Below the pieces are notes generated by a model, which saw only the letters and a program-made list of their open reading frames with translations, had not been told where the DNA came from and made no database searches. Positions 1 to 59,640 of a stretch of DNA of 64,000 nt are shown piece by piece. The DNA comes from Minisyncoccia bacterium (GTDB lineage Bacteria; Patescibacteriota; Minisyncoccia; Phycocordibacterales; UBA918). The stretch covers positions 66,526 to 130,525 of the forward strand of contig JBGSSW010000016.1 in the NCBI GenBank assembly GCA_041736805.1. The letters are read 5' to 3'. A program made the position numbers and the translations under genes. Every line of letters begins with the position of its first letter. Position 1 is the stretch's first letter.

Positions 1-887
1 CAGGATAGTAGACCGTTACCGAACGCAAACTTCATTGCGCCTTTCTGTAAAATTGGATTGTTATTTTTCTTATCTAATTCACGTTGTACTTCTAGAAACA
101 AGCTCTTTTTAATTAGTGGCTCGTATCGATGAGGAAAGTTACCATATTGAGTTTGCATCACGCCGTGGTAAAAGGGATTACACAGTAAGTGGTGCAAAGC
201 ACTAGATTTAAATGGTAGACCCTTCTTTGTTTTTACTTTTTCCTTCGCCAACCAATCACATAGAGTATTGAGTGAGTAGTTGCCTGTCCTGTACCGTTCA
301 AAGATTTCTTTTACGTAATATGCCTCGTAGTGGTTAACTACCAAATCAGCTCTTGTTCTCTTTTCTTTATTACGAGGCACGTTATCGTATCCAAATAGTG
401 CAGTTCCTATCCAGCATCCATCCTTTCTTTTATGCTCGAAAGCACGCTTAACGTTGTCACTTAGTTGGAGAACATAACTTTTAGCAAATAAGACTCCCAT
501 ATCCCACCTGATGATTTCGGCACTATTAGAATCACGATGAATGACAAGACCCTCTCTGTAAAAGTGCAATTCAACCTTTCCAGTCTTTCGCATCTCATCA
601 AGCATTACAGACTCTTTGTAACTACGCTGTAGTCGGTCAATAGTATCGACAACCAAAGCACAGGTATTTTTTGACTTACTAATTTCAGCAATTATTTCCT
701 GAAACTTTTTTCTGTCGGCTTTGGTAGATGATTCTTTGATTTGATATTCAATGACTTCCTTAAAGCCAACTGATTGCGAGTAACGTCTAAGGCGATGTAT
801 TTGTGCTTCGTTTGATTCTTGTTCCTTATCGGAAACTCGTGCCACTACATAAGCAGTGACATCCTTTTTTGTTTTTATATGACTCAT
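1..887 (-). CDS. Large serine recombinase (site-specific integrase/resolvase family), 5' portion only; the 3' end lies beyond the window start
   Basis: My reverse-complement translation from the ATG at 887 gives MSHIKTKKDVTAYVVARVSDKEQESNEAQIHRL... The YxxARVSxxxQ motif is the catalytic serine motif of the resolvase/invertase N-terminal domain. The reading frame stays open for at least 295 aa to the window edge, consistent with a large serine recombinase. It is absent from the ORF track because its stop is off-window. Confidence 0.8.
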   Translation of the reverse strand, partial: MSHIKTKKDVTAYVVARVSDKEQESNEAQIHRLRRYSQSVGFKEVIEYQIKESSTKADRKKFQEIIAEISKSKNTCALVVDTIDRLQRSYKESVMLDEMRKTGKVELHFYREGLVIHRDSNSAEIIRWDMGVLFAKSYVLQLSDNVKRAFEHKRKDGCWIGTALFGYDNVPRNKEKRTRADLVVNHYEAYYVKEIFERYRTGNYSLNTLCDWLAKEKVKTKKGLPFKSSALHHLLCNPFYHGVMQTQYGNFPHRYEPLIKKSLFLEVQRELDKKNNNPILQKGAMKFAFGNGLLS

Positions 888-907
888 ACTAGGTACTATA
901 CGATTGA

Positions 908-1090
908 TTAATTTCCATTTACGATTTCCTTAATGTAGTCAGGTGCATTTGGGTCGGAATTCAATCTTTCTGCAATACCATAGAGAATCACAAACAAATC
1001 ACCCACGTGAGTGTTTGATTTGCTTTCAACTTCAGGAGTGTCGAAGCCAGTTTGTAGTTCTTGTTGGCGTTGTTTTTGTTTCCGACTCAT
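908..1090 (-). CDS. Small hypothetical protein (60 aa) immediately upstream of, and co-oriented with, the recombinase. A recombination directionality factor role is speculative.
   Basis: ORF track. Tight spacing with the recombinase gene. No recognisable motif. Confidence 0.3.
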   Translation of the reverse strand: MSRKQKQRQQELQTGFDTPEVESKSNTHVGDLFVILYGIAERLNSDPNAPDYIKEIVNGN

Positions 1091-1135
1091 ACTTATGATG
1101 AGCTTTTTGGGCTCATCTAAAGCATAAGTGGCAAC

Positions 1136-1954
1136 TTATAAAACGTCCTTTTTAAAGGATTCTATAGTCTCCAAAAGGAAACTATAGGACGGTTTAGGAC
1201 GAAACGATTTATTAACTTGGTTCGATTTAAGTCTTTCGTAACTTCTTTTAAGCATCTTCTCTGAGCAAAATAAGTTATCTATGTCGCTTTGTAAAACAGG
1301 GTTTTGGAAATGGACACTTTTTGCAGAAGCTATTGGAAAAAAGGCTTTACTAAGAGGTTTAATAAAACCATAGTTGTTTAGGGTCTTACGAACTGAAAAA
1401 GGTTCCCTCGTACCAGTTTTTTGCTTTATATAATTTAGGATATCAATTGTGGGGATGTCCTTGTTTGGATTTTTTAAAATATGTTGCCAAAAATGATAAG
1501 GCTGACTACCATCCTGTGGTTTAAGTAGTGTAAACTCATTATTAAAAACAATACCATCTTTAAAATTCATCGTTATTATGAACCGAGGAAACAACGAAAG
1601 GGGTACTACAATTTTAGTAAATTTTTGAAAGTTAATTGTAAAAGTTGCTATCGCACCGTAAATGATTTCATCATTATCATCTGGCATAGACACATCAAAA
1701 GTCTTCGTTCCAATTGCCAGCTTTGATACTGCCTGATGTGCTTCCAAAAACCGCAATACTGCATATTTTTCAGTGCCATCTTGTCCCTCGTTTCCACCAT
1801 CAACTTCACCCAAATACATTGAAAGCTCCGCTGACTTTGCGTCAACATTAACTGCTTTCTCTAATGCTAGAAAGACGTCACGTATGTGGCGAGAGAAGTT
1901 TTTTGGGTAAACTGTAATATCCTGCATATCATTAAGTATAATAGCAATTCTCAT
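1136..1954 (-). CDS. Hypothetical protein (272 aa), accessory/phage-like
   Basis: Long ORF co-oriented with the recombinase. Very low GC. No recognisable motif. Confidence 0.45.
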   Translation of the reverse strand: MRIAIILNDMQDITVYPKNFSRHIRDVFLALEKAVNVDAKSAELSMYLGEVDGGNEGQDGTEKYAVLRFLEAHQAVSKLAIGTKTFDVSMPDDNDEIIYGAIATFTINFQKFTKIVVPLSLFPRFIITMNFKDGIVFNNEFTLLKPQDGSQPYHFWQHILKNPNKDIPTIDILNYIKQKTGTREPFSVRKTLNNYGFIKPLSKAFFPIASAKSVHFQNPVLQSDIDNLFCSEKMLKRSYERLKSNQVNKSFRPKPSYSFLLETIESFKKDVL

Positions 1955-2279
1955 CGGACAAAGTTAGATGTTTAATGAACGTAATCCTGCTTATTACCCT
2001 GTGAATAACTATAATCGAAAAAAGTATTACTAGATTTAAGAATAATAGCCATATTTAATATAGCTATTTTAAGAATTTAATTACTAATTTTAAGAATGCA
2101 TTATAGAAGCAAATTCATAGTTTAAATAGTTATGCGAGTTACGTGAGTTTTTAGTTGAACTCTCCTCTTTGTATAGTGCGTTAAGGTGTTGGGTTGTGGC
2201 GACCAAATACAAAAATCTTATTGGATATGTCGCCACGCTAATAAGGTTTTTGTATTTACAACTAGCCCTCAACAACACT

Positions 2280-2738
2280 CAATCGTTTATCTGGGAATGA
2301 TAAACGTGCTCTTTTAATCCAGATGCTGGCACTGACTGCAACTTGTCACCCAGCGAAGCCTAGTGTGGAGGGGTGGATTTTACTACCTAGGCTTTCCCGT
2401 CATTGTCGGAAGTAAGCAAAGTCGATTATTAGTAACGCTTGCCAATGAGGGAACCAGAGACGAATTGTGACGATACTCAATCACCTCGGTAACGCAATAC
2501 CTGGACGAGGAAGTAGTCTCTTAATCCACCAAGCAGAATGGAACACTCACTTGTCTTGTCGCTGACCGTACTTACTTTGAATTAACAAGGTTGGAAGGAG
2601 AAATCCAAGGAGACGGAAGTACGAGAGAACACACCAAGTGCCGATAGTCATTCGAAAGGAGTTAAATTGTATCACTCATAATGCGACCGAATACCGCTCT
2701 TTAGCGTAAGGGAAAAAGCTTTACCACTTTTATCAACA
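2280..2738. ncRNA. Candidate structured noncoding RNA (~450 nt, ORF-free on both strands, GC about 48% within a ~30% GC neighbourhood). Family and strand unknown.
   Basis: No ORF of 60 aa or more on either strand between 2279 and 2738. There is an abrupt GC rise and many short complementary segments. I found no match to RNase P, tmRNA or tRNA consensus. Confidence 0.25.
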
Positions 2739-2937
2739 ATGTGGCGGAGCTTCGCTCCTAATTGCTATATATGTATGACAAAAAATAATGTAATAACAAT
2801 AATTAAAGTAAGTAATTTTTATTACCGTTTTTTGTTGTGTCTATCTATTTTATATAAACGTAGACAGCTATCCGATGCAATCAGTCGTTCACTAACGGTA
2901 TACACATTACAAATCAATTACGTAGAATCACGTATTT

Positions 2938-3534
2938 TTGCGTGTAAATTACAGTATGTTTAATTCACTTAACTTAAAAGAAATAACTGCAATCGAACTA
3001 AAATATTTAGGAAATACCAATGTTCAAATTGCTGAAAAAATTGACATCCCTGCACGCACTGTAGAGGGTTGGTTTATTAGTGGAGGTAAGCTTGAAGTCG
3101 AGTATCACGATTATTCAAAGCGTTTAAATAAATTACGTTTTGAAAACGTCTCTGAGCAAATTGCTTTAAACGACCAAGAAGTTTTGATTACCACTACAAA
3201 TGTAGTGCGTCACTTCGCTCGCAGACTACAACCAAGAGAAGTTACGCTAGTTCGTGAAGATGGTAATGCTGTGGTAGATGAAAACGGAAAAGCCAAAACT
3301 GTTTTGGTTGAACCAGACGCTCGTTTCACTATGAATGACTTTAAGACGGCTTGGCAGATACAACGCATTATGCAAGGCAAGCCAATTGACTACGTAAAGC
3401 AAGAAATTGAGACGACAAGCTTTGAACACGATGTGGTTATGAAAGAGCTTGGTTTGACAACAGAAGACTTCTCTGACGAAAGAATTGATGAAACAACCAA
3501 ACTGATCACGGACTATTTACTTAATTGTAAATAA
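2938..3534 (+). CDS. Hypothetical protein with a possible N-terminal HTH (phage-like); the true start may be the Met at 2956
   Basis: ORF track. The segment LNLKEITAIELKYLGNTNVQIAEKIDIPARTVEGW resembles a sigma-region-4/terminase-small-subunit type HTH. Confidence 0.45.
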   Translation: MRVNYSMFNSLNLKEITAIELKYLGNTNVQIAEKIDIPARTVEGWFISGGKLEVEYHDYSKRLNKLRFENVSEQIALNDQEVLITTTNVVRHFARRLQPREVTLVREDGNAVVDENGKAKTVLVEPDARFTMNDFKTAWQIQRIMQGKPIDYVKQEIETTSFEHDVVMKELGLTTEDFSDERIDETTKLITDYLLNCK

Positions 3535-3761
3535 TCTGCTTAGTTTGAGATTCTGCAATATCAATATATAATCTCTATACAACTGAATATAGACCTAACC
3601 CGTTAGTTTCGACTGACGGTATGGTTGAAAAACGCACGATACAAGAGACCCTGTCATATTAGGGCGTATCGTGCGTTGCCACTGGAAACGGTGGTAGGGG
3701 TTACCGAAAGGTGTCCTCCTAATGTGGCAGGTTTTGTTGTACCTGCTTCTAACTTTTAATT

Positions 3762-4274
3762 ATGACAAACATAAATGAAGCAAGGGCAGTCTGCCCAAAG
3801 TGTGCAGAAGATGTGAAGCCTGAAGCAAGTATTTGCAAACACTGCGGAAGTAAAATTACTCCAGTTTCCGCCGATAAAGTTAAGAAGCGAAGCGTCCCTG
3901 TTTTAAAGTGGTTTATTTTTATTTGTATAGCAGGAATTATAACGTCGTCAGTTATTTCAAGTACGAGCCAAATGAGTAGCCAATCTACGGCACCTGACCA
4001 CTGTTCTATGGCTTACGTAAAAAGCCAAAACTACGTCGAAGATGTTTTAAAGTCACCTAAGTCTGCAGACTTTCCAATGTTTGAATATACCGCTACCGAT
4101 ATTGGTGACGGTGGATGTGAAGTGAGTGGCTATGTTGATGCAGAAAATAGCTTTGGAGCTAACATTCGTAGCTACTGGACAACCACTGTTCGATTCAATG
4201 GTGGAAGTACAGGAGACTCACTGAACTGGACGCTCGAAAAAATGGTGGTAGATGGTGAAGTCGTATATCCATAG
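3762..4274 (+). CDS. Zinc-ribbon (CxxC-x15-CxxC) membrane-anchored protein with an extracytoplasmic domain
   Basis: CPKC...CKHCGSK near the N-terminus, one hydrophobic helix (VLKWFIFICIAGIITSSVI), then a Ser-rich linker. Confidence 0.5.
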   Translation: MTNINEARAVCPKCAEDVKPEASICKHCGSKITPVSADKVKKRSVPVLKWFIFICIAGIITSSVISSTSQMSSQSTAPDHCSMAYVKSQNYVEDVLKSPKSADFPMFEYTATDIGDGGCEVSGYVDAENSFGANIRSYWTTTVRFNGGSTGDSLNWTLEKMVVDGEVVYP

Positions 4275-4313
4275 CTCCTCACCAGTACAAACGGCCTACA
4301 AGGCAGATTTAGG

Positions 4314-4556
4314 CTAAATACGGCAGGCTACAACGGGTACTGACTGGTATTGTTTTGCTGTAAGTTCATTACTTTGGCCAGATAGGATATCTGCCAGTAT
4401 TTTACTCTCAAAAGGTAGAGTGGCTTCACCTGTAGTAGTTTTAATGTGGGTCACAAACGGAAAAGTGCTTCCGCTGATAGGAGTAGTACGAATTACCTCA
4501 ACTCCGTCAGTTAGGTATAAACATTGTTTTGTGGCTTTCTCAAATAGGCTTCGCAT
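4314..4556 (-). CDS. Hypothetical small protein (80 aa)
   Basis: ORF track only. Confidence 0.25.
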   Translation of the reverse strand: MRSLFEKATKQCLYLTDGVEVIRTTPISGSTFPFVTHIKTTTGEATLPFESKILADILSGQSNELTAKQYQSVPVVACRI

Positions 4557-4598
4557 ACTTAAATGCTAACACTTAATTTTGTTTATGTAGACTATAAG

Positions 4599-7283
4599 TT
4601 AACTCAAAATTGAGATGAGCCATTCGTAAGAAGCTTCACCTTGCTTTCTTTCAACATTATTCATTACACGCCCGTGCTTGACTGCATTTCTGTATTCCTT
4701 GAGTTGCAAGAAGTGCTTCTCGACTTCACCCCTAGAGCCAAAGACGCTCTCAAAAATATCCCAGTTTACAGATATAGTTTCTTGGTAATCCATTATATCG
4801 CAATAGTCAAAACGGTTTCTTGCACTAATAGGCTGACTTCTTTCTGCTGGGTGACGTTTAAATCTTTGCTCTAACTTTTGTTCAACACGTTGCTTTACAC
4901 CATTTGAAACTTTAGCGTCCCAATAATCAGCACCGAAAGCTTTACTCAAATGGGAATCAATAAAGTCTCTCAAATTTAATTCTAATTCATCAACTGCTGT
5001 TTCAGGTGCAGTTTCAAGAACTTCTTCGGTGTCAGGACTCAAGCCAATTTTGCTTCTAATTACCCTAATGATACTTTTTTCTCTTTCTTCGAGAAACCCA
5101 TCGAAGTTATCACTTTGAAGTAGAGCAAGTCCAACCGCACTAATTGTGTGCGACTCCAGTACTTCTGTAAGCGCCTGTTCATTGGATGAGTATTTGTCAG
5201 TTAAAAACTCATTTATGTAGACAGAAGGTACTTTATCCCTTTTTCTCATATTAGTTTCTTTTGACAACCAGGTCATATTAAGAACTGAATTAATATACGG
5301 ATGTTGCGAAAAACCAGCACTGTTAGACTTTGGGAAAATATGGTCTTTGTCATTACTTCTAGCCATCTCTAAAGCGTGTCCTGTTTCAAAATCTACAGCT
5401 CCAGCTAAAGCAATTAATGACATCACACCTTTGTATATTGCATTAGAATGGTTGTTTACCTCTTTTAAATCAAGATTTGAAAGGTCATTTCTGGCTTGTG
5501 TCACTACTTTAGGAATATTTTCTTCACCATTGAACCAATTCATAACCTCCTTATAGTCAGAAGTCATTTGAGTCTCTGCAGACGATGAGTAAGCGTTAGT
5601 AAAAATTGCTGACCAATACCACTGATCAATCTTTGACTGGCACAATAATCTGTCTGCTCTTGTGGCCGCTTCCATATTCAAAGCTGTGAGTACAGGAATC
5701 ATTGGAGAAAACGGCACCTCCTTATCATTTAATACACCGTAACCTGTACGTAAGTTTTCGAGCAAGTTAAAGGTTGATTCGAGATTTTCAACCACTTGAT
5801 TCCAGAGCGTGATAAATTCTTCAGCTGAAGATAGGGACAAGTTCTCGTATAAAGAAAGTAAATCTTTCTTCTTTGCTGAACTTGAGGGATGATGGATTAA
5901 TGAAAGGCACTGAAAAATGAACATCTTGGTTTTTTCAGACTTACAGTAGTTATTGATTCCTTCATAGTTCTCAAGTACCGATTCCCAGAGATTTCTCAAG
6001 TTGATGCCATTCCTAAGCAGTTTTGCGATTAGCAAATCAAATGTGCCAAGTGGTTTACCTTCAGTGTTAATTTTTTCAAAAATAACTGATACTTGTGCTA
6101 AGTCCATACTGCTAGGCAGAACAACAAACGGTATCTGAAAGCCTTGCCACATATGCCTGACTCTGGATTCAATCAATCTTTTTAGGTCTCTTAATTTCTC
6201 ATACGGTAAGTCAGCTTCAGTTGTATGTAAGTAGTCTTCAAGTCCGTCTAGCCATTCAAATGAATTTGAGAGCTTGTTAATTGGAAATAACAAACTTTCA
6301 TAGGTTTCAATGTTTGACAACTCTCTATCCTTCACAGTAATAATCCTCTCACTATTTTGTTCAAGAATAAAATTCTTAAAATCAATATAGTAATATGAAT
6401 TTTTAGAAGTACCCTTAAGAGGAAAATCGGGTGACTTAATCGCATAGTAAAGTGCGGTACAACGCTGTTGCCCATCCAGTATTATAAAATCAGTTCGACT
6501 CAATGAATTTGACGAACCTTGAATCGCAATCAACTCTAAAGGGGCTTGCTCATCTGATTCCCACAGTAAAAAGGCTCCGACATAGTAATCATTAAAGATT
6601 GATTCCAGAAGTGACCGCACGCTTTCTCTATTCCAATCAAAATATCTTTGGAAATTAGGAATCGCCCATCTGGTATCTAAATTTTCTATAATTCGTGCGA
6701 CATCAATTCTGTCCGGGCTACTTAAAGCGTGGGGAGAAAAACTGACAGTCGATAAATCTACTGATGTTACAAAATGCTTCAATCTTTCAGTTTCGAGTAC
6801 AGTGTCTACATCATAGTTTTCTGATGTAACAATTCTTTCAAAATCAGCAGAATTAATTTTCCTTATGCCACCCTGTAGATACGGCCCCCAAGAATAGGGA
6901 TTTTTGATAAATGACAAGTTGTTTAGTAGCGGTTTTATTGGCTTTGGTCTATCAAAAATTAATATGTCCGCTAAGTCCAGTCTGAACATATCCTCACTAC
7001 TAAAATAATTGTGAGAAGTATCACTTTCTCTATAAGCGGATGATGTGGCAGTAGCTGTACCAACAAAATGCTGATTTTCACCACCTAAGTAAAAAACAAT
7101 CTTGTCTCCAGGGACAATCTTAGCTCTTGCGGCTGTTCTAGGGTGTAAACCCCAAACACTCTTCGACATTAAATCAGTATAGATTTCAGATGCAGAAATC
7201 CTGTTGCCTGTACTGTCCTGATGCGACGTTATTATTGATATATAGTTACTCATAATGATGATTACTTTGAGTAAGCATATCAT
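4599..7283 (-). CDS. GmrSD-like type IV restriction endonuclease fusion: N-terminal EVE/PUA-like domain, DUF262 (DGQQR), DUF1524 (His-Me finger, DHIFP) and a C-terminal HEPN-like Rx4H motif. The probable true start is the Met at 7253.
   Basis: VWGLHPRTAARAKIVPGDKIVFYLGG...FVGTATATSSAY matches the EVE pattern (W.G....ARN....pGD...FY). IILDGQQRCTALYYAI is the DUF262 signature. DKDHIFPKS...N...L is DUF1524 HNH-like. The terminal LKEYRNAVKHGR is a HEPN Rx4-6H motif. Confidence 0.7.
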   Translation of the reverse strand: MICLLKVIIIMSNYISIITSHQDSTGNRISASEIYTDLMSKSVWGLHPRTAARAKIVPGDKIVFYLGGENQHFVGTATATSSAYRESDTSHNYFSSEDMFRLDLADILIFDRPKPIKPLLNNLSFIKNPYSWGPYLQGGIRKINSADFERIVTSENYDVDTVLETERLKHFVTSVDLSTVSFSPHALSSPDRIDVARIIENLDTRWAIPNFQRYFDWNRESVRSLLESIFNDYYVGAFLLWESDEQAPLELIAIQGSSNSLSRTDFIILDGQQRCTALYYAIKSPDFPLKGTSKNSYYYIDFKNFILEQNSERIITVKDRELSNIETYESLLFPINKLSNSFEWLDGLEDYLHTTEADLPYEKLRDLKRLIESRVRHMWQGFQIPFVVLPSSMDLAQVSVIFEKINTEGKPLGTFDLLIAKLLRNGINLRNLWESVLENYEGINNYCKSEKTKMFIFQCLSLIHHPSSSAKKKDLLSLYENLSLSSAEEFITLWNQVVENLESTFNLLENLRTGYGVLNDKEVPFSPMIPVLTALNMEAATRADRLLCQSKIDQWYWSAIFTNAYSSSAETQMTSDYKEVMNWFNGEENIPKVVTQARNDLSNLDLKEVNNHSNAIYKGVMSLIALAGAVDFETGHALEMARSNDKDHIFPKSNSAGFSQHPYINSVLNMTWLSKETNMRKRDKVPSVYINEFLTDKYSSNEQALTEVLESHTISAVGLALLQSDNFDGFLEEREKSIIRVIRSKIGLSPDTEEVLETAPETAVDELELNLRDFIDSHLSKAFGADYWDAKVSNGVKQRVEQKLEQRFKRHPAERSQPISARNRFDYCDIMDYQETISVNWDIFESVFGSRGEVEKHFLQLKEYRNAVKHGRVMNNVERKQGEASYEWLISILS

Positions 7284-7321
7284 TATAATTCATTATTTTC
7301 AGCTAAAATGATATAGTTTAA

Positions 7322-7939
7322 ATGACATTTATTTATATGGTTAAATACATAATTTTTCGATACCTAACTAACGCAGATTTTTTTAATATCTATAAACAAC
7401 CTGGTACGGAGTTAGGTGGTGGTGGTCAGGCTTATATTGATTTTCCTGCACAAGATGTATCTCTAGAGAAATGGGGTAAGTTTTTTGAAGACGCAAATAG
7501 TATTGTTTGTGACTCTGGAGAACAAGGCCCTATCTGGTATGTGCCACTAAATAGTATCGGTGTACAAGGTTCTCAAGAGGTAAAGATTTACCAGAGAAGA
7601 GCACAAAGTATATGCATTGCTTCACAACGAATTACTAGCACTAGAGAAAATCGAGTTAAGTCGTGGCATCCAGAAAATGGCTTTCCAGAACCTGCCGACC
7701 CATTAGAACGTAATCAACTTCCTCAGAATCTTCTTGTTTATCTACTTAGAACTAGCAACGATGAATTTTGGGCTGGATGGTCATTAAATCAAGTTCCTGC
7801 GAGAGACAATAATGCGATACAGCTAATTGCTGAAATGCACAATGAGGCTATGTCAGAAGGTCATTCTGGTTTTATTGAACCAACTGACACCCTACTGTTT
7901 GATTCAACTGATAAGGAAAAACCCTTCTTTACATCTTAA
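7322..7939 (+). CDS. Hypothetical protein (205 aa); candidate restriction endonuclease partner of the adjacent methyltransferases
   Basis: It lies between the type IV gene and the two methyltransferases, converging on them with an 11-bp overlap. It contains a possible D...EVK PD-(D/E)xK-like arrangement (CDSGEQG...SQEVKIY). The assignment rests mainly on genomic context. Confidence 0.4.
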   Translation: MTFIYMVKYIIFRYLTNADFFNIYKQPGTELGGGGQAYIDFPAQDVSLEKWGKFFEDANSIVCDSGEQGPIWYVPLNSIGVQGSQEVKIYQRRAQSICIASQRITSTRENRVKSWHPENGFPEPADPLERNQLPQNLLVYLLRTSNDEFWAGWSLNQVPARDNNAIQLIAEMHNEAMSEGHSGFIEPTDTLLFDSTDKEKPFFTS

Positions 7940-9005
7940 CCTCAATCAAATACTCAGTTAAGTTTTTACCAAGCTTGCTAGCGTTACTTTTAAATCGCTT
8001 ATGACTTATTTCCTCTAATGAAACTTCTCCGTATTTTTTTAATCCTACGAGTAACTCCTTTATCGGAATTAAACCATCTTCACTATAACTAATTAAAAAG
8101 CTATTGCATTTGACACCAGTCAAAATTTTATCAAAGGAGTCCCAAATTTTTGTTTTGGTGCAAAAATTTGAATATTGGTCTCGCCAAGGTCTTAGTCCAC
8201 TCACACCAATGGCTTGAGGGTCATCCTCCCGTGCCAACGTTTCTAGAATATGGTAGTTAGCCGCATATTGTCTTTTCATATATGGAGGGTCAATGTAACA
8301 AACACTGCACTGAATTGTATTTGCTAAATCTTCAGCATATCCCTTATAAACATTGTGCTTTGATAATTTTGAATCAGCAACAAAATTTGTTGCTATTGAC
8401 GGCTTTAAATACAGAACATCATTTGCTCGCCCAGTCAGCTTGGAAAGATAGTGACCGTAAGTTCCTGAAATATTTGCTACGTCATTTACCGCCAAGATTA
8501 AATCATTCAATAGTAGTGAATGCTCGATGTCATTAATTACTTTTTCTTGGTAAGCGTTTCTTATCCAATTTCTAATTGCATCAATTTTAGAAGCATTGTG
8601 TGGAGAAAAGTAGTTACGTGGCCCATCACCAGAGCTAGGCTTTCCTTCAATACAAAACTCTTTATAAAAATACTTTTTTTGTGGCTTAAGATTGTTTAGA
8701 TAAAGTAAAACATCTACATAGCCGTTTTCATTGTCATTTTTATTCAGCTTTTGATTAATAAATTTATTGGCTTTTTTAAAAGTAGGAGTCTTATCAATTA
8801 AAAGCACTACACGAGCGTGATGGTATGAATATGTCATAACATCTGTCGCAATTACAGAAAAACCCCGCTCTTTTAAAGCTTTAGAAACTGTAGCTGTACC
8901 ACACATCAAATCACAAACCACGTCTCCTTCCTTTGTAATTGATTCAATTTTGTCTACAATTTTGTCTACAATTTTACTTTTAGAACCAATATACCTATGT
9001 CCCAT
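7929..9005 (-). CDS. DNA methyltransferase (N6-adenine or N4-cytosine) with motif I FxGxG-like near the N-terminus and DPPY motif IV near the C-terminus (alpha-class order)
   Basis: VVCDLMCGTATVS (AdoMet-binding motif) ... CYIDPPYMKRQY (DPPY catalytic motif). Confidence 0.8.
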   Translation of the reverse strand: MGHRYIGSKSKIVDKIVDKIESITKEGDVVCDLMCGTATVSKALKERGFSVIATDVMTYSYHHARVVLLIDKTPTFKKANKFINQKLNKNDNENGYVDVLLYLNNLKPQKKYFYKEFCIEGKPSSGDGPRNYFSPHNASKIDAIRNWIRNAYQEKVINDIEHSLLLNDLILAVNDVANISGTYGHYLSKLTGRANDVLYLKPSIATNFVADSKLSKHNVYKGYAEDLANTIQCSVCYIDPPYMKRQYAANYHILETLAREDDPQAIGVSGLRPWRDQYSNFCTKTKIWDSFDKILTGVKCNSFLISYSEDGLIPIKELLVGLKKYGEVSLEEISHKRFKSNASKLGKNLTEYLIEVKM

Positions 9006-9006
9006 T

Positions 9007-10746
9007 TTAAAATATGTCGTTAACCGAAACGTTAGTCAGTGCTTTAATAGGAAGCAGGCTATCAACTTTATTAAAAGTTTCGTATATAACCCCGTAATCC
9101 TTTTTGGTTAGACCAAACAAAGTTGCCACTAGACGCTCTATTTTAGCATCAATGGACTTTGGTACAACCTTATTGTTTTCAAGGTATGGCTTTAAAGTTG
9201 AGACAATTGCCTTTGAAATCTTTCCAAAAGATGCAGATTTTATATCTGGGAATGGTAAGTTAAGAATTTGACCTTGTGTTAAATAAGGATGAGAGCGCCA
9301 TTCAGTTTCACCGTATTTTTTGAGTAAAAAATAATACATCGCTCTTGAGTTAATTACACTCAACACTAACTCAATTGGAGCCGTCTCACTTGCCGGACTT
9401 TCTTTAGGTCTAAACATATACACAACCTGATTTGTGAGCGATTGTGTGTAATCAATAGATGCTGTAATTCCAACGCCAGTTTTGCGGACAATAATTTTTG
9501 GTTCGTAGTAAACACTAATATCCTTGTAGTTTATTCCTTTATTATCGACAGAAATCCAGTACTCAGAAGATATTGAGTAGCGTCGAATACTCTCACCTAC
9601 TAGGAGGGGCTTTGATCCTTTAAATTTTTTCTTACTAACAATATTTTGAACTTCGACTTTAGATAAGTCTGAATTTTTGGCGCAATGGTTACACTTAGGG
9701 CGCAGACTGTTTGGGTATGGGTTCCACTGACTACAGTAGTCACACTTATATACCTTCCCTGATTTAGACAATTCTACCCCTCTTGATGAAGATACGAAGT
9801 CACCAATAACTTTCTTACTAGAAGACAGCTTTTGTATTACCTTTAATTCATTGTCCTTTGTGTCTATATCGAAAAGGTATAGACCAGTTTCAGAAAAACG
9901 CTTTTGAAAAACTTTGTGTGACAACTTAGAGTTTGCATCCTCGTATGATAATTCATTCTTGAGAATTAGCTTTCTAGTTTCAAGATTCAACCGCATACAC
10001 TCAACTTCATTCTCAGCTGAAGGTACAGTGTTTTTAAATATTATTATCGTACATCCTCTACTAACGTCTTTAAATATTTTTTCACCAAGTCGTGCTATAT
10101 ATTTAATTTCTGTATTTTCAGTAAGTAATTTCCTAAGAACCTTTTTTTCGTGACTAAAAATTGAATCTGGAATTATGAAGGCACAATATCCACCTTTACG
10201 AACAATTCTTAGTGATAGCTCAATAAATAAATCAGATGAGTCAAACTGCCCTTTATTTAAAGTGTAGTCGCTGTGATTTAATTCCTTAACATAATGACTC
10301 ATATCCGCTCCCCAGGGAGGGTTGGCAACCAAAACATCAAAACCATCTTGTGCATTAAAATGACTCTGAAGTGACTTGATATCAAATATACTCAGTCTAC
10401 TTTCATAAGGAAATAAGGCATTTATTTTCAGAGTGTTTTTAGCAGAAATTAACTTAGAAGTGGTTTCCACTGCGTATTTATCAATATCTGTACCATACAA
10501 ATCAAAATGATTTGAAAGTTGATTTCGAGACAAGTATCTATTTACCGAGTGAAGTAATTCACCCTCTCCACAAGCGGGGTCAATTATTTTGAGACTATCG
10601 ACTTGTCTGTAAGCGCCTCTAGAAATATCTTCAGATAAAAAGTGTAGTACTTTACTGACCAGAAAATCCGCAAGGGGTTTTGGTGTATATACAATACCTA
10701 AATCACTTTTATACTGTGTTTTTTTATTTTTAGTGACTAAAACCAT
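9007..10746 (-). CDS. N6-adenine DNA methyltransferase, gamma-class (Eco57I/TaqI-like, NPPW motif) with a C-terminal target-recognition region containing a Cys4 zinc ribbon
   Basis: IIDPACGEGELL (motif I) ... LVANPPWGADMSHY (motif IV NPPW) ... CDYCSQW...CNHCAKN. Confidence 0.8.
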   Translation of the reverse strand: MVLVTKNKKTQYKSDLGIVYTPKPLADFLVSKVLHFLSEDISRGAYRQVDSLKIIDPACGEGELLHSVNRYLSRNQLSNHFDLYGTDIDKYAVETTSKLISAKNTLKINALFPYESRLSIFDIKSLQSHFNAQDGFDVLVANPPWGADMSHYVKELNHSDYTLNKGQFDSSDLFIELSLRIVRKGGYCAFIIPDSIFSHEKKVLRKLLTENTEIKYIARLGEKIFKDVSRGCTIIIFKNTVPSAENEVECMRLNLETRKLILKNELSYEDANSKLSHKVFQKRFSETGLYLFDIDTKDNELKVIQKLSSSKKVIGDFVSSSRGVELSKSGKVYKCDYCSQWNPYPNSLRPKCNHCAKNSDLSKVEVQNIVSKKKFKGSKPLLVGESIRRYSISSEYWISVDNKGINYKDISVYYEPKIIVRKTGVGITASIDYTQSLTNQVVYMFRPKESPASETAPIELVLSVINSRAMYYFLLKKYGETEWRSHPYLTQGQILNLPFPDIKSASFGKISKAIVSTLKPYLENNKVVPKSIDAKIERLVATLFGLTKKDYGVIYETFNKVDSLLPIKALTNVSVNDIF

Positions 10747-11410
10747 TACTTAATTTTAGCACGTCACTCATTCATTTTTTGTAGTTATCCAAAATTTTAG
10801 TATTGTAAATTAAGGATATTATTAGTATAGGTATCTACATTTGCTTCATCTTAAACTTTGTAAGTGACCACTCATTCTTAGAACGTCCATTGCCTGGCTT
10901 CTTTCCAGTAAACGCTCCCATTCTACCCAGTTTACGTTTATAAAGGTGCTTAGATTGCGGAGCAAATCAAAAAACGCCTTAGGGTGTTTTTTGTTTGTGA
11001 CGCGGGAGAACGTGACTAAATGTCACGTTCGTTAGGATTCGAAGCCGGATTGAGCTAGATTTGAGCTTGCGAAAAATCTAGCCAATTTGGTTACTGGTCG
11101 TGTAACGACCGAAATTCCTACCGCGGAGCAAACTTGACACATCCTTTTGATAAGATAATGTTCTTATGGGTTCGGCATCGACCGGACATCTCTAGGAAGG
11201 TGTAATGAATCATATTCGTATAGTCACCCAGCACATGTTGTGCATCGGAGCACCTGTAGTCGGGGCTCTCGCTCTCACCCAAATCAGTCTTTGGCTAGGT
11301 AATGGTCCAGTGGTACTAAATCCATTTGTCTGTGCCCTAGCCCTGGTTGCCTCGCCGTTTCTATACATGATGGGAGTGCGAATGAAGGGCGGGGCCTGAA
11401 TGTTGTTACT

Positions 11411-11455
11411 ACCGCTTGTACAGACACCGCGTCTGTATGAGCGGTTTCTGTTTTT
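11411..11455 (+). terminator. Rho-independent terminator-like hairpin followed by a T-run
   Basis: accgcttgtacagacaccgcgtctgtatgagcggt forms an extended stem of about 13 bp and is followed by ttctgttttt. Confidence 0.45.
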
Positions 11456-11501
11456 ATACACAAGCGGTTCGAACATCCTTCACCCAGCGGAGCAAAATAG
11501 G
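11448..11501. repeat. Left copy of an ~55-bp imperfect direct repeat (putative att-like boundary)
   Basis: tttttatacacaagcggttcgaacatccttcacccagcggagcaaaa aligns with 16781-16836 (ttattttatacaaaaaacgcagcggttcgagcatcacacacctagcggagtaaa). Partial copies occur at 11117-11146 and 17117-17132. Confidence 0.5.
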
Positions 11502-11870
11502 ATAACCCTTCACTTCAGTCATGAGGTCGAAGGTTTTTGCCTAATGTGGTAACTTTCATCGGCATCAACTAAATTCTCTAGTTGAAGACTTAATGACTCG
11601 CTGTCTGTGTCTTAATTCTTTCTCTTTCTTGTCATATTCATCCTGAGCAATTCTCCACTTTGGTACGGAGTTTCTCTTTACATTCTAATTCTGAACTTAT
11701 CTATGAAAACAAATTCAGTTACCTTCTCTAACAGGGCGTTTTTCCATTAGACTTAAGGTTTTAATACCACTTGCCATTTAAATGATTCCAACTTTTATGA
11801 CTTACAAATCTTTAATTTGTTAATGTGGATAATAAACAATTTATACTTTAATAATTGATATTATAAAGTT

Positions 11871-11898
11871 TGATTAATTGTTCATTAACTTAATTAAC
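11871..11898. promoter_or_regulatory. AT-rich TTAATTAA-containing operator-like motif upstream of the ClpP-like gene, followed by RBS GAGGTG at 11899-11904
   Basis: tgattaattgttcattaacttaattaac. A related motif is repeated upstream of the 13262 gene. Confidence 0.3.
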
Positions 11899-11909
11899 GA
11901 GGTGTACAA

Positions 11910-12575
11910 ATGGTCTCTAAAATTAGACTTGGAAAACTGGATGAATTTGAACGTGCTACATTACTAATGGAAAGAGGTATTGACTTGGGTCGTCGAAAGA
12001 TGATTGTCGGTGTCCCATACATAAGTAACAACAGTGAAAGTGATGTAGGGTTCCCCCTTGTAGCAAACTTCTTTACCGGCCTCCATGCTCTGGAACACTT
12101 TTATGAGCCAAAAGCTGGAGAAACTCCAAGAGAGCATATCGATATTGAGTTTGTCAGCTACGGAGGAGACTTGCATGCATCGTTCGGAATATTCGATCGA
12201 ATCACCATGGTGTCTGTCCCCGTACATATCTATGTCTATGGGCCATGCATGAGTGCCGGTAGCTTGATTCTCCAAGCAGCGACCAAACGTTTTATGTCAC
12301 CAAAATCAAGCTTGATGCTTCATTATGGTTTTACTGCAGATGAGGGTACTTCGGACCCCAAACGTCTTGAAGAGGTACTTCGTTATCACAAGAAGCTCAT
12401 GGATACACTAGTCAGTATATATCTATCTAGTTGTAACAAAAATATTCTCACTGAAGAAATACTTCGAAACAAGATTCTTCCGATTGAGACATATCTAGAT
12501 GCAGAGTCTTGTCTAAAGTACGGACTTACCGATGAAATAATCGAGCCAGTAATTCCAGGATTAGCTAGTTGCTAG
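11910..12575 (+). CDS. ClpP-family (S14) serine peptidase, orphan and divergent, with an intact Ser-His-Asp triad
   Basis: IDIEFVSYGGDLHASFGIFDRITMVSVPVHIYVYGPCMSAGSLILQAATKRFMSPKSSLMLHYG aligns with the E. coli ClpP segment [66 protein letters not shown]. The C-terminal YGLTDEII aligns with YGLVDSIL. Confidence 0.75.
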   Translation: MVSKIRLGKLDEFERATLLMERGIDLGRRKMIVGVPYISNNSESDVGFPLVANFFTGLHALEHFYEPKAGETPREHIDIEFVSYGGDLHASFGIFDRITMVSVPVHIYVYGPCMSAGSLILQAATKRFMSPKSSLMLHYGFTADEGTSDPKRLEEVLRYHKKLMDTLVSIYLSSCNKNILTEEILRNKILPIETYLDAESCLKYGLTDEIIEPVIPGLASC

Positions 12576-12608
12576 CAACAAAAAGGGTGGCGTCTGTCAC
12601 CCTTTTAC

Positions 12609-13085
12609 TTATTTATTCTTTAATAGACTCTCATTTTTAATAACCTTCTTCAAAACAGAAACAAAATTTTCATACTCATCTGAATCAAGATTTTTTAGAA
12701 GGGGCTCAAAAAAGACTAAAAACTGTTGTTGTGAGAGAGATAGAATCTTTTTACCCTCTTTTGTTATACACATACTTTTTTTTCGTTTATCTCCACCATT
12801 TGCAATGATTGAAATAAGACCACGATTCTCCAATTTAGTTCCTATGACAGTTAAAAATGAATCCTGAATTCCTAACTCTTCAGCAACATCTGAAAAAGAC
12901 ACGAAGTCACCTTTATGATCGAGAAAACCAAGAAGAATCCAGTCTCCAGTATTGAGCTCAAATACTCTTAGAGCTCTTGTCATGTAGCTTTTTGTAATTC
13001 TATGAAATTTACTTTGTAACAAAGCGACTTTTGTTGCCTTTTGTATAAAAGGTATTTTCAAGGAAAACTTATTGATCATAAGCAA
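12609..13085 (-). CDS. MarR-family winged-helix transcriptional regulator, divergent from the 13262 operon
   Basis: Size is 158 aa. It has the central wHTH pattern (FSDVAEELGIQDSFLTVIGTKLENRGLISI...GDKRKK) and is divergently arranged with a shared intergenic region carrying repeated motifs. Confidence 0.6.
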   Translation of the reverse strand: MLMINKFSLKIPFIQKATKVALLQSKFHRITKSYMTRALRVFELNTGDWILLGFLDHKGDFVSFSDVAEELGIQDSFLTVIGTKLENRGLISIIANGGDKRKKSMCITKEGKKILSLSQQQFLVFFEPLLKNLDSDEYENFVSVLKKVIKNESLLKNK

Positions 13086-13170
13086 TATTGTATCTCAAAA
13101 TAATTACATAGCAAATTTTTTCCACATCTGAGATTTGTTAATAGATAGTTAAGTTAGTAAACTATAAAGT

Positions 13171-13223
13171 AGATTAATTAAGTTAATGAATAATTAAGTT
13201 AATTAATTGTTAGTTCCTTGACA
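13171..13223. promoter_or_regulatory. Divergent promoter/operator region: direct repeats of taattaagttaat plus a TTGACA -35-like hexamer (13218-13223)
   Basis: agattaattaagttaatgaataattaagttaattaattgttagttccttgaca lies between the divergent MarR gene and the 665-aa gene. Confidence 0.3.
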
Positions 13224-13261
13224 TTTATCTTCCCGCTTACCTTTACTAAAGGAATTTTATC

Positions 13262-15259
13262 ATGGCAAAGAATGTTAAAGTCCGGAAAGCTGTCTTGGTT
13301 GACAGGTCTAAAATCAATGATTTCATCAAAAGTAATCGCCAACTTTCAAGAAAGGAACTCGCTGAAAAATGTGGCATCAGTAAGAATGCCGTGAAGGAAC
13401 GTGAACATCTAATGAACCTGACTAGGGAATGGAAAATGGCAGAAAAAGCACAGCCCGAAGACAGGCTTTCTCAGCGACAGGAGTTTGCCAGCATCTGGAA
13501 CGATGCCCGAACATACCCGGCTAAGTATGACCTGGAGCGCGCTCTAGGTAGTAACTTTCGCGCTCTGCAGGCAAGGGCGCGTCGCTACACACAGTTTCGG
13601 GTCAACCAGCCAACCCTTGGTTTACCAGAACTGATTTGGCGACAACAAATTACCGGGGGTATGATTGCGGTACCAGAAGGCGTCATACGTCAATTGGATG
13701 AATTTCGAGTCACTCCGGAGTTACTTGACGCTCTTTCTAAAGGGAAAATTTCCAAGGTACTACTGACCGGCTACCAGTTCGGTGCCAGCTTGAACCAAAA
13801 CTTCTGGAAATCCCTGAAACATTACGAAACAGAACGTGGTACTCCCCTACTGGTCTTGCCAATCAAGTACGGCCCAATCAAAACTGTTGCCCATAAAGGT
13901 ACCGGTAATCGTATCTTGACCAGTACCTTCCCGGCCGAGCTTCATGGTCACATGATTTTCGAGAATCAAGTCATATTCAATGATGAACTTGAGATCAATG
14001 TGATGCGCATGCGCCCGACATTGGTTACCTTTCTCACCCCTAGTGTCTGTCAAAGGGGTGGTACGCGGTCGCAGATATTCGCAGCGCCCAAACTAGAGCT
14101 CAAGCACCAAATGCGGATTGGACGACATCAACCCAAGGCCCTTATGACAACTGGGGCAGTAAGTTACCCAAGCTACTCAGTCGATAACCTCGGTCAACAA
14201 GATCGAACAGGGGAAATTGCCGCTCAAGAGCATGAATTTGCAGCCGTGGTGATTGAGCTTGGCAAAAAAGGCTTTCACTTCCGCCAACTCCTAGCCAATA
14301 AACGTGGTGAGTTCTACGACATCAACATCAATAAGGGTGGGGCCGACCTCTTCACACCAAATGGGGTTGAGCACCGTCCAGACGACGTTGATGCGCTTTA
14401 TTGCGGTGATCTGCATATCGGGATTACCGATCCCCAGGTAGAGGAAGCCACGTTCGAGAAGAATGGTATTGTCTCCATCCTTAAGCCAAAAAATATCGTG
14501 TTTGGGGACGATATCGATGGTTGGAGTATCAACCATTATGACGAAGAGCATCAGGGCGCTAGGCGGTCTTGGAAAGCTCAACACGGTCTGGATAGTCTAG
14601 AACGTGAACTCGAGATGGCAGTGGCAAAGCATAAGTGGATACATGCCAAAGTTACTTCCTACGTACCAAAAATCAAGATACATCGCATTGCTGCCAATCA
14701 CCCCGAGTTTGTGTCGGAATACATCGAAAGTAGAAAATGGGCAATGCGAGGGCATGACGTCAACGCCGTAATCGGGGCTGAACTATTCTTGGCCATGCGA
14801 GAAAGCATCAGAAAGCCAAAGCTGAAGCTACTCAGGTCTGGTGGATTTGGAACAGAGTTTTTGACTCCCAAAGACTTGGACGTCAGCCCCATCGACCCAG
14901 TTGTTTGGTACTTCCGCAAGCATTGTCCAGAGATAATTTCCTACGAACGAAAAGATCAACTGTTCTTCCCTAAAGGAGTCAAGCATCCGATACTTTGTTC
15001 ACTTCACGGTGACAAAGGTAGCCGTGGTGGCAAAACGCGAAGCACAAAAGAATTTCAAAACGTGGGGAGACGGACACTGCTCGGCCATAACCATTCTGCC
15101 GAAATCAATGGCATAGCTTGGCGTGTTGGTACGTCGACCGGACGAACCCAACACTACGTGATGTTCCCAGGCACAAACTGGTCACAGTCACACGCTGCCA
15201 TCTTCAAGAATGGTCAGCGACAACTGTTAAACATCATCATGGGTGAGTGGCACGGGTAA
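13262..15259 (+). CDS. Large protein (665 aa) with an N-terminal HTH-like segment and a C-terminal region carrying calcineurin-like metallophosphoesterase-type motifs in canonical order; function unknown
   Basis: The N-terminus has RQLSRKELAEKCGISKNAVKERE (HTH-like). The C-terminal half has YCGDLHIG, VFGDDIDGW, IAANHPE, LHGDKGSRGG and LLGHNHS, resembling the PPP/MPP motifs GDxHG, GDxxDRG, GNHE, HGG-RG and GHxH. GC is higher (about 50%) than the surrounding DNA. Confidence 0.55.
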   Translation: MAKNVKVRKAVLVDRSKINDFIKSNRQLSRKELAEKCGISKNAVKEREHLMNLTREWKMAEKAQPEDRLSQRQEFASIWNDARTYPAKYDLERALGSNFRALQARARRYTQFRVNQPTLGLPELIWRQQITGGMIAVPEGVIRQLDEFRVTPELLDALSKGKISKVLLTGYQFGASLNQNFWKSLKHYETERGTPLLVLPIKYGPIKTVAHKGTGNRILTSTFPAELHGHMIFENQVIFNDELEINVMRMRPTLVTFLTPSVCQRGGTRSQIFAAPKLELKHQMRIGRHQPKALMTTGAVSYPSYSVDNLGQQDRTGEIAAQEHEFAAVVIELGKKGFHFRQLLANKRGEFYDININKGGADLFTPNGVEHRPDDVDALYCGDLHIGITDPQVEEATFEKNGIVSILKPKNIVFGDDIDGWSINHYDEEHQGARRSWKAQHGLDSLERELEMAVAKHKWIHAKVTSYVPKIKIHRIAANHPEFVSEYIESRKWAMRGHDVNAVIGAELFLAMRESIRKPKLKLLRSGGFGTEFLTPKDLDVSPIDPVVWYFRKHCPEIISYERKDQLFFPKGVKHPILCSLHGDKGSRGGKTRSTKEFQNVGRRTLLGHNHSAEINGIAWRVGTSTGRTQHYVMFPGTNWSQSHAAIFKNGQRQLLNIIMGEWHG

Positions 15260-15391
15260 AATCAATAGTAATGATTTTGCTGGTTTATGAGCACTTATTG
15301 TAAACCAGCATATTTTTCAGATTACGAATTAATTTTCGCAATTTGAAAGATATTAGTTCTTTGACATAACCTAACAGTAAAGGAGAAATTT

Positions 15392-15712
15392 GTGAATAAA
15401 TTCAATTTACGTCGTCTATTTGAAAATATGATTAGCTTTGTTGTGCTCGATACAAACATCATACTAAAGGAACTAATTGTCCCCGGGTACTACATTGCAA
15501 AATCAAAAACACTGCGAATTTCATCAACAAAAGATGGTGCTGATTTGGTGAAAATTACCTACGCCGCCTTGATTCATCATCTCCATCCTAAAACCTCCCT
15601 GGAGACTTGTCTGGAGTACGCGGGGGAAATGACCTTAAAAATAAACAAGTCAGAGATGCAGTGGGCAATAAAATATATTAGGGACCATACAATAAAACTT
15701 TCCATTGTTTGA
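15392..15712 (+). CDS. Hypothetical protein (106 aa); its stop overlaps the next gene's start by 4 nt, so it is in the operon
   Basis: ORF track. ATGA overlap with the start of the 15709 gene. Confidence 0.4.
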   Translation: MNKFNLRRLFENMISFVVLDTNIILKELIVPGYYIAKSKTLRISSTKDGADLVKITYAALIHHLHPKTSLETCLEYAGEMTLKINKSEMQWAIKYIRDHTIKLSIV

Positions 15713-16251: not shown

Positions 16252-16270
16252 CATGAGGCGGAGTCCGTTC

Positions 16271-16304
16271 ACCCCTGTACTAATTTAGTACAGGGTTTGT
16301 TTTT
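16271..16304 (+). terminator. Rho-independent terminator of the 13262-16251 operon
   Basis: cccctgtac-taattta-gtacaggg followed by tttgttttt. Confidence 0.65.
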
Positions 16305-59029: not shown

Positions 59030-59114
59030 CTGAATTTTGACCTGCAGACTTATTTATTTCATTATGCAATAAATAGTCTATACAAATAAAAATTGAGGAG
59101 TATTATAAATATTA

Positions 59115-59573: not shown

Positions 59574-59640
59574 ATTGATCCTTAAAAAAGTACAATCAAA
59601 TGTACTTTTTTTAGTTTTTAACATTTTATAAATACCTATT

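Follow-up and report, generated by a model that had tools for sequence, protein, structure and literature searches.

What kind of enzyme is specified by a gene in which EVE, DUF262, helical linker, DUF1524 and HEPN domains follow one another in a single reading frame, and how does it relate to the methyltransferase genes beside it? The gene occupies positions 4599 to 7283, on the minus strand, of the window (the whole stretch of DNA analysed, 64,000 nucleotides), and its 894 codons run to the stop without interruption; the opposite, plus strand is rich in stops. The strand had gone unstated in the original prediction. Two features make the ATG at 7253 (M11) the probable true start: homologues align with the 894-aa protein from residue 11 only, and the ORF's first ATG is overlapped by a TATAAT box. 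As read from its sequence, the gene appears to be a defence gene in whose 894-residue product a DNA-cutting core of BrxU/GmrSD type is flanked by a reader of modified bases and by a tail that is probably an RNA-cutting HEPN domain. The order in which the domains had been predicted, EVE-DUF262-DUF1524-HEPN, proved correct by Pfam, the PADLOC profile HEC-05, PDB profile matching, AF2 modelling and Foldseek. There are 36 full-length homologues, ~885–900 aa long and evenly conserved across the domains, and the catalytic motifs are invariant in 38 homologues with identity down to 35%. Taken domain by domain the identities are also even (for HEPN 41–68%, as elsewhere in the protein), and purifying selection is comparable over the five regions.

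The amino-terminal EVE (PUA-like) domain, residues ~12–155 (6819–7250, minus strand), scores 27.0 bits with Pfam EVE, above the cutoff of 23, and is matched by NCBIfam PRK00809 (E 2.4e-13). A profile of the family matches the solved EVE proteins 2p5d (E 1.2e-13) and 1wmm (E 8.7e-11), to which the region is also close in Foldseek comparison (TM 0.75–0.76); YTH domains, which are m6A readers, are weaker Foldseek neighbours (E ~1e-2). The domain is predicted to read a modified base. Between versions of the protein linked to m6A and to m5C methyltransferases, EVE is slightly more diverged than DUF262 (39–47% versus 51–55% identity), a margin too small, and too much confounded by phylogeny, for faster divergence of EVE between the two to be concluded.

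The core consists of three parts. The DUF262 / GmrSD_N domain, a ParB-like NTPase at residues ~190–425 (6009–6716, minus strand), is recognised by Pfam with 101.8 bits against a cutoff of 33.2 over residues 199–422 and by a profile match to BrxU (7p9k), and its LDGQQR, of which DGQQR is encoded at 6462–6476, is invariant across the 38 homologues. The linker at residues ~426–625 (5409–6008, minus strand), as in BrxU and GmrSD, is entirely helical in the AF2 model at residues ~429–626 (pLDDT ~90) and lies within the HEC-05 match. The DUF1524 / GmrSD_C His-Me finger nuclease, residues ~626–745 (5049–5408, minus strand), carries DHIFP at 5331–5345, where the corresponding BrxU motif is DHIYP. Its Pfam GmrSD_C score is weak (13.7 bits, below the cutoff of 23), and its identification comes from HEC-05, the Foldseek alignment with BrxU and invariant residues, D647, H648, N669 and N678 of the nuclease motif being unchanged in all 38 homologues. 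HEC-05, a BrxU-type profile, matches residues 188–746 end to end (profile positions 21–593 of 600, E 3e-23). An alignment with BrxU had been put forward as a check on the original prediction, and both HEC-05 and Foldseek provide it, covering the core from DUF262 to DUF1524; with 7p9k Foldseek aligns 641 columns (E 4.6e-14) at ~17% identity. The DGQQR and DH motifs of BrxU have been probed by mutagenesis, and this is counted as support for a GmrSD/BrxU reading. NTP-dependent cutting of DNA with modified cytosine is a trait of the family and is predicted here.

The tail, residues ~755–894 (4602–5021, minus strand), is, on its sequence motifs and model, a Swt1-type HEPN domain with an intact RNxxxH and a conserved E/R pair, E768 and R772, in its first helix. 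The RNAVKH (Rx4H) motif, residues 865–870 encoded at 4674–4691, is invariant in 38 family members. A wider set of HEPN tails, 147 representatives with less than 50% mutual identity, came from an exhaustive HMMER search (a word-indexed search with the tail profile gave mostly fragments of the same family, so that the exhaustive search was required). In it the R of the motif is present in 144 of 145 homologues, the N in 137 of 145 and the H in 145 of 145, and the strict conservation of these residues bears out what had been claimed for the motif. The Pfam HEPN_Swt1 (PF18731) cutoff of 27.5 bits is not reached by the tail itself (22.2 bits, E 1.8e-4) but is exceeded by the homologue P0072 (27.8 bits). 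At E <= 0.01 HEPN_Swt1 matches 16 of the 38 family members, a single one of which clears the Pfam cutoff, and at E <= 1e-3 it matches 45 of 109 wider homologues. The only other Pfam family found on the tail is the related HEPN_SAV2148, which disposes of a generic GmrSD helical domain as its identity. In RefSeq the tail homologues detectable by BLAST are labelled ‘Swt1 family HEPN domain-containing protein’. The AF2 model of the tail (pLDDT 92.5, pTM 0.85) has helices at 760–783, 794–810, 851–869 and 876–893, with short helical inserts at 812–848, upstream of the motif. RNAVKH spans the point where the penultimate long helix, helix 3, ends and the loop leading to the last one begins, and this arrangement agrees with the published HEPN description, the comparison being one of topology without superposition. 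No significant fold match of the tail to solved HEPN RNases was found, and the HMMER tail profile gave chance matches only against PDB sequences.

The original prediction had taken the fusion of HEPN to a GmrSD-family enzyme to be undescribed. In this it was mistaken, for the fusion has been on record since 2013: in Table 1 of Anantharaman et al. (PMC3710099) Swt1-like HEPN is entered as joined to ‘ParB (DUF262) with HNH (VNG7073), active’. A Halobacterium pNRC100 protein is homologous over DUF1524 and HEPN (residues 495–894, E 3e-44), and DUF262 is present in 31 of 109 diverse tail homologues. Bell et al. 2020 (PMC7641849) had remarked on rare fusions of EVE with GmrSD. The modules in the C-terminal slot are interchangeable across the wider family, 69 relatives having an ‘IHDRWIL’ tail there and 7 having SLFN_AlbA_2.

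A fresher lead than the HEPN fusion is that the gene is strictly linked to a pair of methylases and to what remains of a restriction enzyme after loss of its nuclease. Divergent from it on the plus strand is ORF205 (7337–7939, ~200 aa), and on the minus strand there follow a D12-class (Dam-like) N6-adenine DNA methyltransferase (7929–9005; Pfam 109.6 bits, PADLOC MTase_II) and an Eco57I/TaqI_C-type N6-adenine DNA methyltransferase (9007–10746; Pfam N6_Mtase, Eco57I and TaqI_C, PADLOC MTase_II). A Paracoccus plasmid has the orthologous three-gene RM system, its methyltransferases 46% and 34% identical, respectively, to those here; it is without a GmrSD gene, and its 377-aa restriction endonuclease has a C-terminal HNH domain. 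ORF205, which is without a match in Pfam, NCBIfam, PADLOC or PDB, aligns only with residues 8–158 of that endonuclease. As it is the counterpart of the non-catalytic N-terminal part of such an HNH enzyme, with the HNH itself missing, the neighbouring ‘RM system’ is without a recognisable nuclease of its own. HNH sequence is absent from the window and from every GmrSD-linked locus; a close relative, P0155 (54% identity), keeps it. Identification of ORF205 as a PD-(D/E)xK nuclease was rejected, the candidate D...ExK residues not being conserved in the alignment. The GmrSD core was matched by component C of a PADLOC candidate, PDC-M55, but assignment of the cassette to it was also rejected, the genes alongside matching generic MTase_II models only and ORF205 nothing. 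An adjoining RM system had been invoked in favour of a defence role, and of this the two N6-adenine methyltransferases and the compatible defence context stand, but the third gene lacks HNH and any recognisable nuclease.

The four genes (the GmrSD-like gene, ORF205 and the two m6A methylases) form a cassette that is intact, syntenic and similarly diverged (50–60% identity) in eight loci: the window, L002, L003, L024, L026, L027 (its contig shared with L031) and L033. The EVE-GmrSD-HEPN gene and its three partners, the genes for the two m6A methyltransferases and for the recognition-domain protein that lacks HNH, travel together. L032 is a decayed, clearly pseudogenised copy. In a second cassette type the same enzyme family occurs together with two C5 methyltransferases; there ORF205 has no homologue, and a small ORF of 147–149 aa is present to which Pfam, NCBIfam, PADLOC and plasmid tblastn gave no identity. 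The gene sits in a serine-recombinase island, and in different genomes the cassette occupies different chromosomal sites, a context consistent with a role in defence. The remainder of the window holds housekeeping genes, e.g. those for ATP synthase, HisRS and aldolase; a phage origin of the window was rejected, these genes being present, tRNAs absent and megablast giving no match to phages. The protein family is concentrated in CPR genomes (Saccharibacteria, Nomurabacteria).

To judge from its domains and their motifs, the protein probably acts as a single-chain GmrSD/BrxU-family restriction enzyme, Type IV-like and dependent on nucleotide, with an EVE reader and a HEPN RNase as second effector, in a CPR (Saccharibacteria-like) bacterium. 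In incoming DNA, EVE would bind a modified base that is flipped out; the NTPase, like its BrxU counterpart, would govern oligomerisation or activity, and cleavage would fall to the His-Me finger. HEPN domains from two subunits may pair to form a metal-independent RNase, which as second effector could lead to dormancy or abortive infection. It might be released once DNA restriction is triggered or blocked, in keeping with the PrrC-like RNase role that Anantharaman et al. 2013 (PMC3710099) proposed for HEPN domains fused to R-M nucleases. Against this reading are the protein's own Pfam scores for HEPN_Swt1 and GmrSD_C, which lie under the curated cutoffs, and the strict methyltransferase linkage, which is atypical for a free-standing Type IV enzyme.

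That linkage is the starting point for another reading, unlikely though deserving of some weight, in which the protein is no independent Type IV enzyme and does the cutting for the methylation cassette next to it. ORF205 would give sequence recognition, the GmrSD-like His-Me nuclease would have replaced the lost HNH, and EVE would sense methylation state in the way that SspE and DndI sense host phosphorothioate. The synteny and similar divergence of the four genes in the eight intact loci argue for it, as does the distribution of HNH, which is retained by P0155 and by the Paracoccus system that has no GmrSD gene and is missing from every locus linked to one. So too do the structural neighbours DndI and SspE, which are modification-sensing GmrSD-like proteins, and the joining of the same enzyme family to two C5 methyltransferases in the second cassette type. 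However, those C5 cassettes are without an ORF205 homologue, EVE fusions elsewhere are modification-dependent enzymes (PMC7641849), ORF205 could be a regulator or a decaying remnant, and the linkage may be mere co-mobility in a defence cassette. A more elaborate proposal, speculative and rather improbable, is that the four genes constitute a new composite restriction-modification system. An ancestral two-methylase HNH enzyme would have lost its HNH and the surviving ORF205 recognition domain would partner EVE-GmrSD-HEPN, with the GmrSD-like part responsible for NTP-dependent DNA cleavage, EVE for reading methylation state and the HEPN RNase acting as a built-in fail-safe.

Doubtful, for its part, is the view that the HEPN-like tail is not an RNase effector and serves the DNA nuclease as a regulatory module, whether structural, for dimerisation or for the binding of nucleotide or nucleic acid. 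It would fit with the lack of a significant fold match to solved HEPN RNases, with the non-RNase character of the modules (‘IHDRWIL’ and SLFN_AlbA_2) in the C-terminal slot of relatives, and with the eukaryotic Swt1 HEPN domains, which are thought to be catalytically inactive binders (PMC3710099). But R, N and H of the motif and the E/R pair are near-absolutely conserved in ~150 very diverse homologues, which a purely structural role would hardly account for, and the versions fused to DUF262 and HNH were scored ‘active’ by Anantharaman et al. (PMC3710099). Very improbable is a reading in which the gene, decaying or inactive, is carried along by the mobile island and has no present function. 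The serine recombinase and the pseudogenised related locus, L032, are what such a fate might leave; the intact 894-codon ORF, all of its catalytic motifs and the evenly conserved full-length homologues tell against it.

GmrSD/BrxU enzymes have been studied as pure DNA nucleases. If the HEPN RNase of the Type IV-like enzyme favoured here is active in cis, DNA restriction and RNA-level abortive infection would be combined in one polypeptide throughout a widespread subfamily, an idea proposed on computational grounds in 2013. The pairing with methylases and a restriction enzyme remnant raises the prospect that some GmrSD-like proteins are integrated with a host methylation module and are not free-standing Type IV enzymes, which would parallel the integration of SspE and DndI with phosphorothioation. 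The defence systems of CPR genomes, where the family is concentrated, are poorly characterised.

Of known systems BrxU (7p9k; HEC-05) comes first in both structure and profile comparison, matching residues ~188–746, and shares the DUF262 NTPase with DGQQR, the helical linker and the DUF1524 His-Me nuclease with DHI(F/Y)P; at ~580 aa, however, it has neither the N-terminal EVE reader nor the C-terminal HEPN. The VNG7073-type fusion has the same domain order of nuclease and then Swt1-type HEPN with an active Rx4H, but the archaeal example, which comes from computational cataloguing, has no EVE and in its RefSeq version is 465 aa long without the DUF262 part. An N-terminal EVE/PUA-like reader on a nuclease is common to the EVE-fused modification-dependent enzymes (EVE-HNH, EVE-PD-(D/E)xK, EVE-McrB and VcaM4I, 6yex), while the EVE-GmrSD fusions of Bell et al. 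(PMC7641849) were reported without detail and without reference to a HEPN tail or methyltransferase cassette. SspE and DndI are alike in their GmrSD-like fold (Foldseek E 5.6e-4 and 8.8e-6, respectively) and in genetic coupling to a host DNA-modification module, any functional coupling being putative here; they differ in sensing phosphorothioate and in having no EVE or HEPN, and the modification genes linked here are for m6A or m5C methyltransferases. The PrrC and RloC anticodon nucleases provide the counterpart for the tail, as HEPN RNases that are physically tied to a restriction system and believed to become active once restriction has been disabled. PrrC, though, is a separate protein on a Type I enzyme, whereas here HEPN is covalently fused to a Type IV-like one.

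The EVE-GmrSD-HEPN gene is a single unbroken ORF of 894 codons in the translated window (4599-7283, minus strand); the plus strand across the same interval has stops throughout. An identical protein, encoded on a 194.6-kb NCBI contig, is already in the databases. Since every full-length homologue aligns from query residue 11, and the first ATG shares bases with a TATAAT box, translation probably begins at M11, the ATG at 7253.

The protein begins with an EVE domain (residues 43-152; 27.0 bits in Pfam, where the cutoff is 23; NCBIfam PRK00809, E 2.4e-13), and the profile of the protein family matches the solved EVE proteins MJECL36 (2p5d) and PH1033 (1wmm). GmrSD_N/DUF262 follows (residues 199-422; Pfam 101.8 bits), where the family profile matches BrxU (7p9k). 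GmrSD_C/DUF1524 scores 13.7 bits, under its Pfam cutoff of 23; the PADLOC HEC-05 profile, which its authors equate with BrxU, covers residues 188-746 end to end (E 3e-23). The full-length AF2 model, with 38 homologues as input, is confident (pLDDT 86.4). Its top Foldseek matches in the PDB are BrxU (E 4.6e-14, 641 columns), DndI and SspE, and the N-terminal part retrieves the two EVE structures (TM 0.75) and then YTH domains. There are three catalytic signatures, DGQQR (residues 270-274), DHIFP (647-651) and RNAVKH (865-870). In 38 homologues, with identity down to 35%, DGQQR, D647/H648 and R865/H870 are invariant; F650, P651 and N866 are nearly so.

That the tail is a Swt1-type HEPN domain is well supported by sequence and predicted topology. 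Pfam HEPN_Swt1 matches residues 765-877 at E 1.8e-4 (22.2 bits, below the cutoff of 27.5), and PADLOC PDC-M34B matches with E 1.3e-13. In the immediate family HEPN_Swt1 is matched in 16 of 38 members, and the homologue P0072, at 27.8 bits, is above the cutoff. The 36 full-length homologues all carry the motif YRNxxKHxR, as do two more remote ones. When the tail profile was searched exhaustively with HMMER, representatives of 2,369 clusters scored E <= 1e-3; among the top 147 of these, mutually <50% identical, the HEPN motif is kept (R 144/145, N 137/145, H 145/145), as is the first-helix pair (E768 132/133, R772 135/135). Pfam finds HEPN_Swt1 in 45 of 109 tail homologues, the related HEPN_SAV2148 in 2 and no competing family for the region. 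Plasmid proteins found by tblastn with the tail are named 'Swt1 family HEPN domain-containing protein' in RefSeq. The AF2 model of the isolated tail is very confident (pLDDT 92.5, pTM 0.85). A pair of long helices comes first, then short inserted helices and another long helix with RNAVKH at its end; a loop leads from there to the last helix. Foldseek of this model against the PDB gave no significant match (best E 1.2); 2q00 (prob 0.33) and the Csm6 structure 6tug are the weak ones. The original prediction of EVE, DUF262 and DUF1524 in one protein was correct, and its C-terminal HEPN domain with an Rx4H motif is supported by the motif's retention and the HEPN_Swt1 matches.

The core, residues ~170-750, is common to >80 relatives at 40-46% identity, the ends of which vary: Mrr_N, MrcB_N or PF28527/PF28530 at the N-terminus, and at the C-terminus an 'IHDRWIL'-motif tail (in 69) or SLFN_AlbA_2 (in 7). 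EVE with HEPN is thus one combination in a modular scheme, in which the core is joined to a reader and an accessory module. (The 'IHDRWIL' module, ~150 aa, occupies the position of the HEPN tail in the C-termini of P0039-P0120, such as the final ~160 aa of P0039; the tail of the 69 has no Pfam match.) Divergence rates within the EVE-HEPN subfamily are similar in all regions, an argument for selection on the architecture as a whole.

The window is cellular chromosome (ATP synthase, HisRS, aldolase and similar genes), and the full-length homologues are encoded in MAGs of Saccharibacteria and Nomurabacteria. Linkage of the gene to a methylase cassette is strict; together they form a block of four genes: an Eco57I/TaqI_C m6A MTase (9007-10746, minus strand), a D12 m6A MTase (7929-9005, minus), ORF205 (~200 aa, 7337-7939, plus) and the EVE-GmrSD-HEPN gene. 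Synteny of the block holds across eight intact loci (named as the window, L002, L003, L024, L026, L027, on the same contig as L031, and L033), with all four proteins 50-60% identical. In L026 it lies between sigma70 and UvrD; the window has its sigma70/UvrD backbone at 50-64 kb, ~45 kb from the block, which indicates that the block moves as a unit. In the window, 693-aa and 455-aa ORFs (56948-61008) stand in the cassette's place between UvrD (53860-56859) and sigma70 (61451-62818), so this interval may be an insertion hot-spot.

In a second cassette type (L004 595-3280; L005 5267-7993; L025 4253-6916), the same enzyme family is joined to two C5-cytosine MTases and a conserved ORF of 147-149 aa, which stand where the first type has its two m6A MTases and ORF205. 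A decayed cassette is seen in L032 (1633-5840), with both MTases fragmented, the EVE-GmrSD gene cut down to a 213-aa EVE fragment and the ~200-aa ORF intact. L026 has a stand-alone 167-aa EVE protein (9667-10170, minus strand; Pfam E 1.5e-49), encoded directly downstream of, and convergent with, the EVE-GmrSD-HEPN homologue. A 70-74-aa XRE/HTH_3 gene, resembling an RM controller (C) protein, adjoins the cassette in L024 (3000-3224), L027 (3042-3254) and L033 (2909-3133), upstream of the large MTase in the first two; no equivalent was seen in the window.

The first ~16 kb of the window (1-16300) looks like a mobile island, with a ClpP-like protease (11910-12575), a MarR regulator (12609-13085), a 665-aa PHROG 'DNA transfer protein' (13262-15259) and a nucleoside 2-deoxyribosyltransferase (15709-16251). 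A large serine recombinase lies just past the window's left edge (L001 16397-17899), and the ATP synthase operon begins after the island, at ~17.4 kb. It is probable that the cassette sits in an integrated mobile element. Flanking genes in L024, an AbiJ_NTD3 plus Abi_C (HEPN-type) abortive-infection gene (14429-15691, minus strand), a second serine recombinase and conjugation-type genes (Replic_Relax, TrwB-like), are consistent with a mobile defence island.

ORF205 has no match in Pfam, NCBIfam, PADLOC or the PDB. JGI labels several of its homologues McrA-like, and longer relatives have a C-terminal HNH motif. Paracoccus aerodenitrificans plasmid p2 carries an orthologous three-gene system, with MTases matching those of the window (E 1.6e-105 and 6.5e-118) and a 377-aa 'HNH endonuclease signature motif containing protein' (L028 3989-5122). 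Residues 8-158 of the latter align with ORF205 (44% identity, E 1.2e-39), and it has its HNH motif at the C-terminus. The ~8.5-kb region examined around the p2 system contains no GmrSD gene. ORF205 thus corresponds to the N-terminal domain of such an HNH restriction enzyme, with the HNH itself missing. Neither the window nor any GmrSD-linked locus has an HNH sequence, and the predicted RM system beside the gene, real as to its two MTases, therefore has no recognisable nuclease.

This may be a degenerate RM system beside a separate Type IV enzyme. Alternatively, cleavage has been taken over by the GmrSD-like protein. The strict linkage to the methylases and the lack of HNH at every GmrSD-linked locus are compatible with such a takeover, which we nevertheless consider improbable.

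A HEPN tail on a GmrSD enzyme had been taken as undescribed. That novelty estimate was too high, because the fusion is already published and widespread: Table 1 of Anantharaman et al. 2013 (PMC3710099) lists Swt1-like HEPN with 'ParB (DUF262) with HNH (VNG7073), active', and DUF262 is present in 31 of 109 diverse tail homologues, so that the HEPN-DUF262 fusion is common. A 465-aa Halobacterium pNRC100 protein aligns to query residues 495-894 (E 3e-44), taking in KHHIFP and FRNALAHHR, which makes the DUF1524-to-HEPN junction an old, homologous fusion. For EVE, Bell et al. 2020 (PMC7641849) note 'Rare fusions to homologs of ... GmrSD'. A HEPN tail goes unmentioned in the experimental papers on GmrSD, BrxU and HEC, and no description of the complete four-part protein, or experimental test of any member, was found. 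The remaining interest is in an experimentally untried subfamily and its unusual cassette context.

All four parts of the protein, from the reader through NTPase and nuclease to HEPN, are conserved and intact. The EVE domain would recognise a modified base in foreign DNA, and DNA cleavage would be NTP-controlled, as in BrxU. The HEPN domains may dimerise to form an RNase, a second effector that would be dormancy-inducing or abortive. PrrC-like action has been argued for HEPN domains on R-M nucleases by Anantharaman et al. (PMC3710099), in whose model R-M subunits restrain the RNase, which is freed when the system is neutralised.
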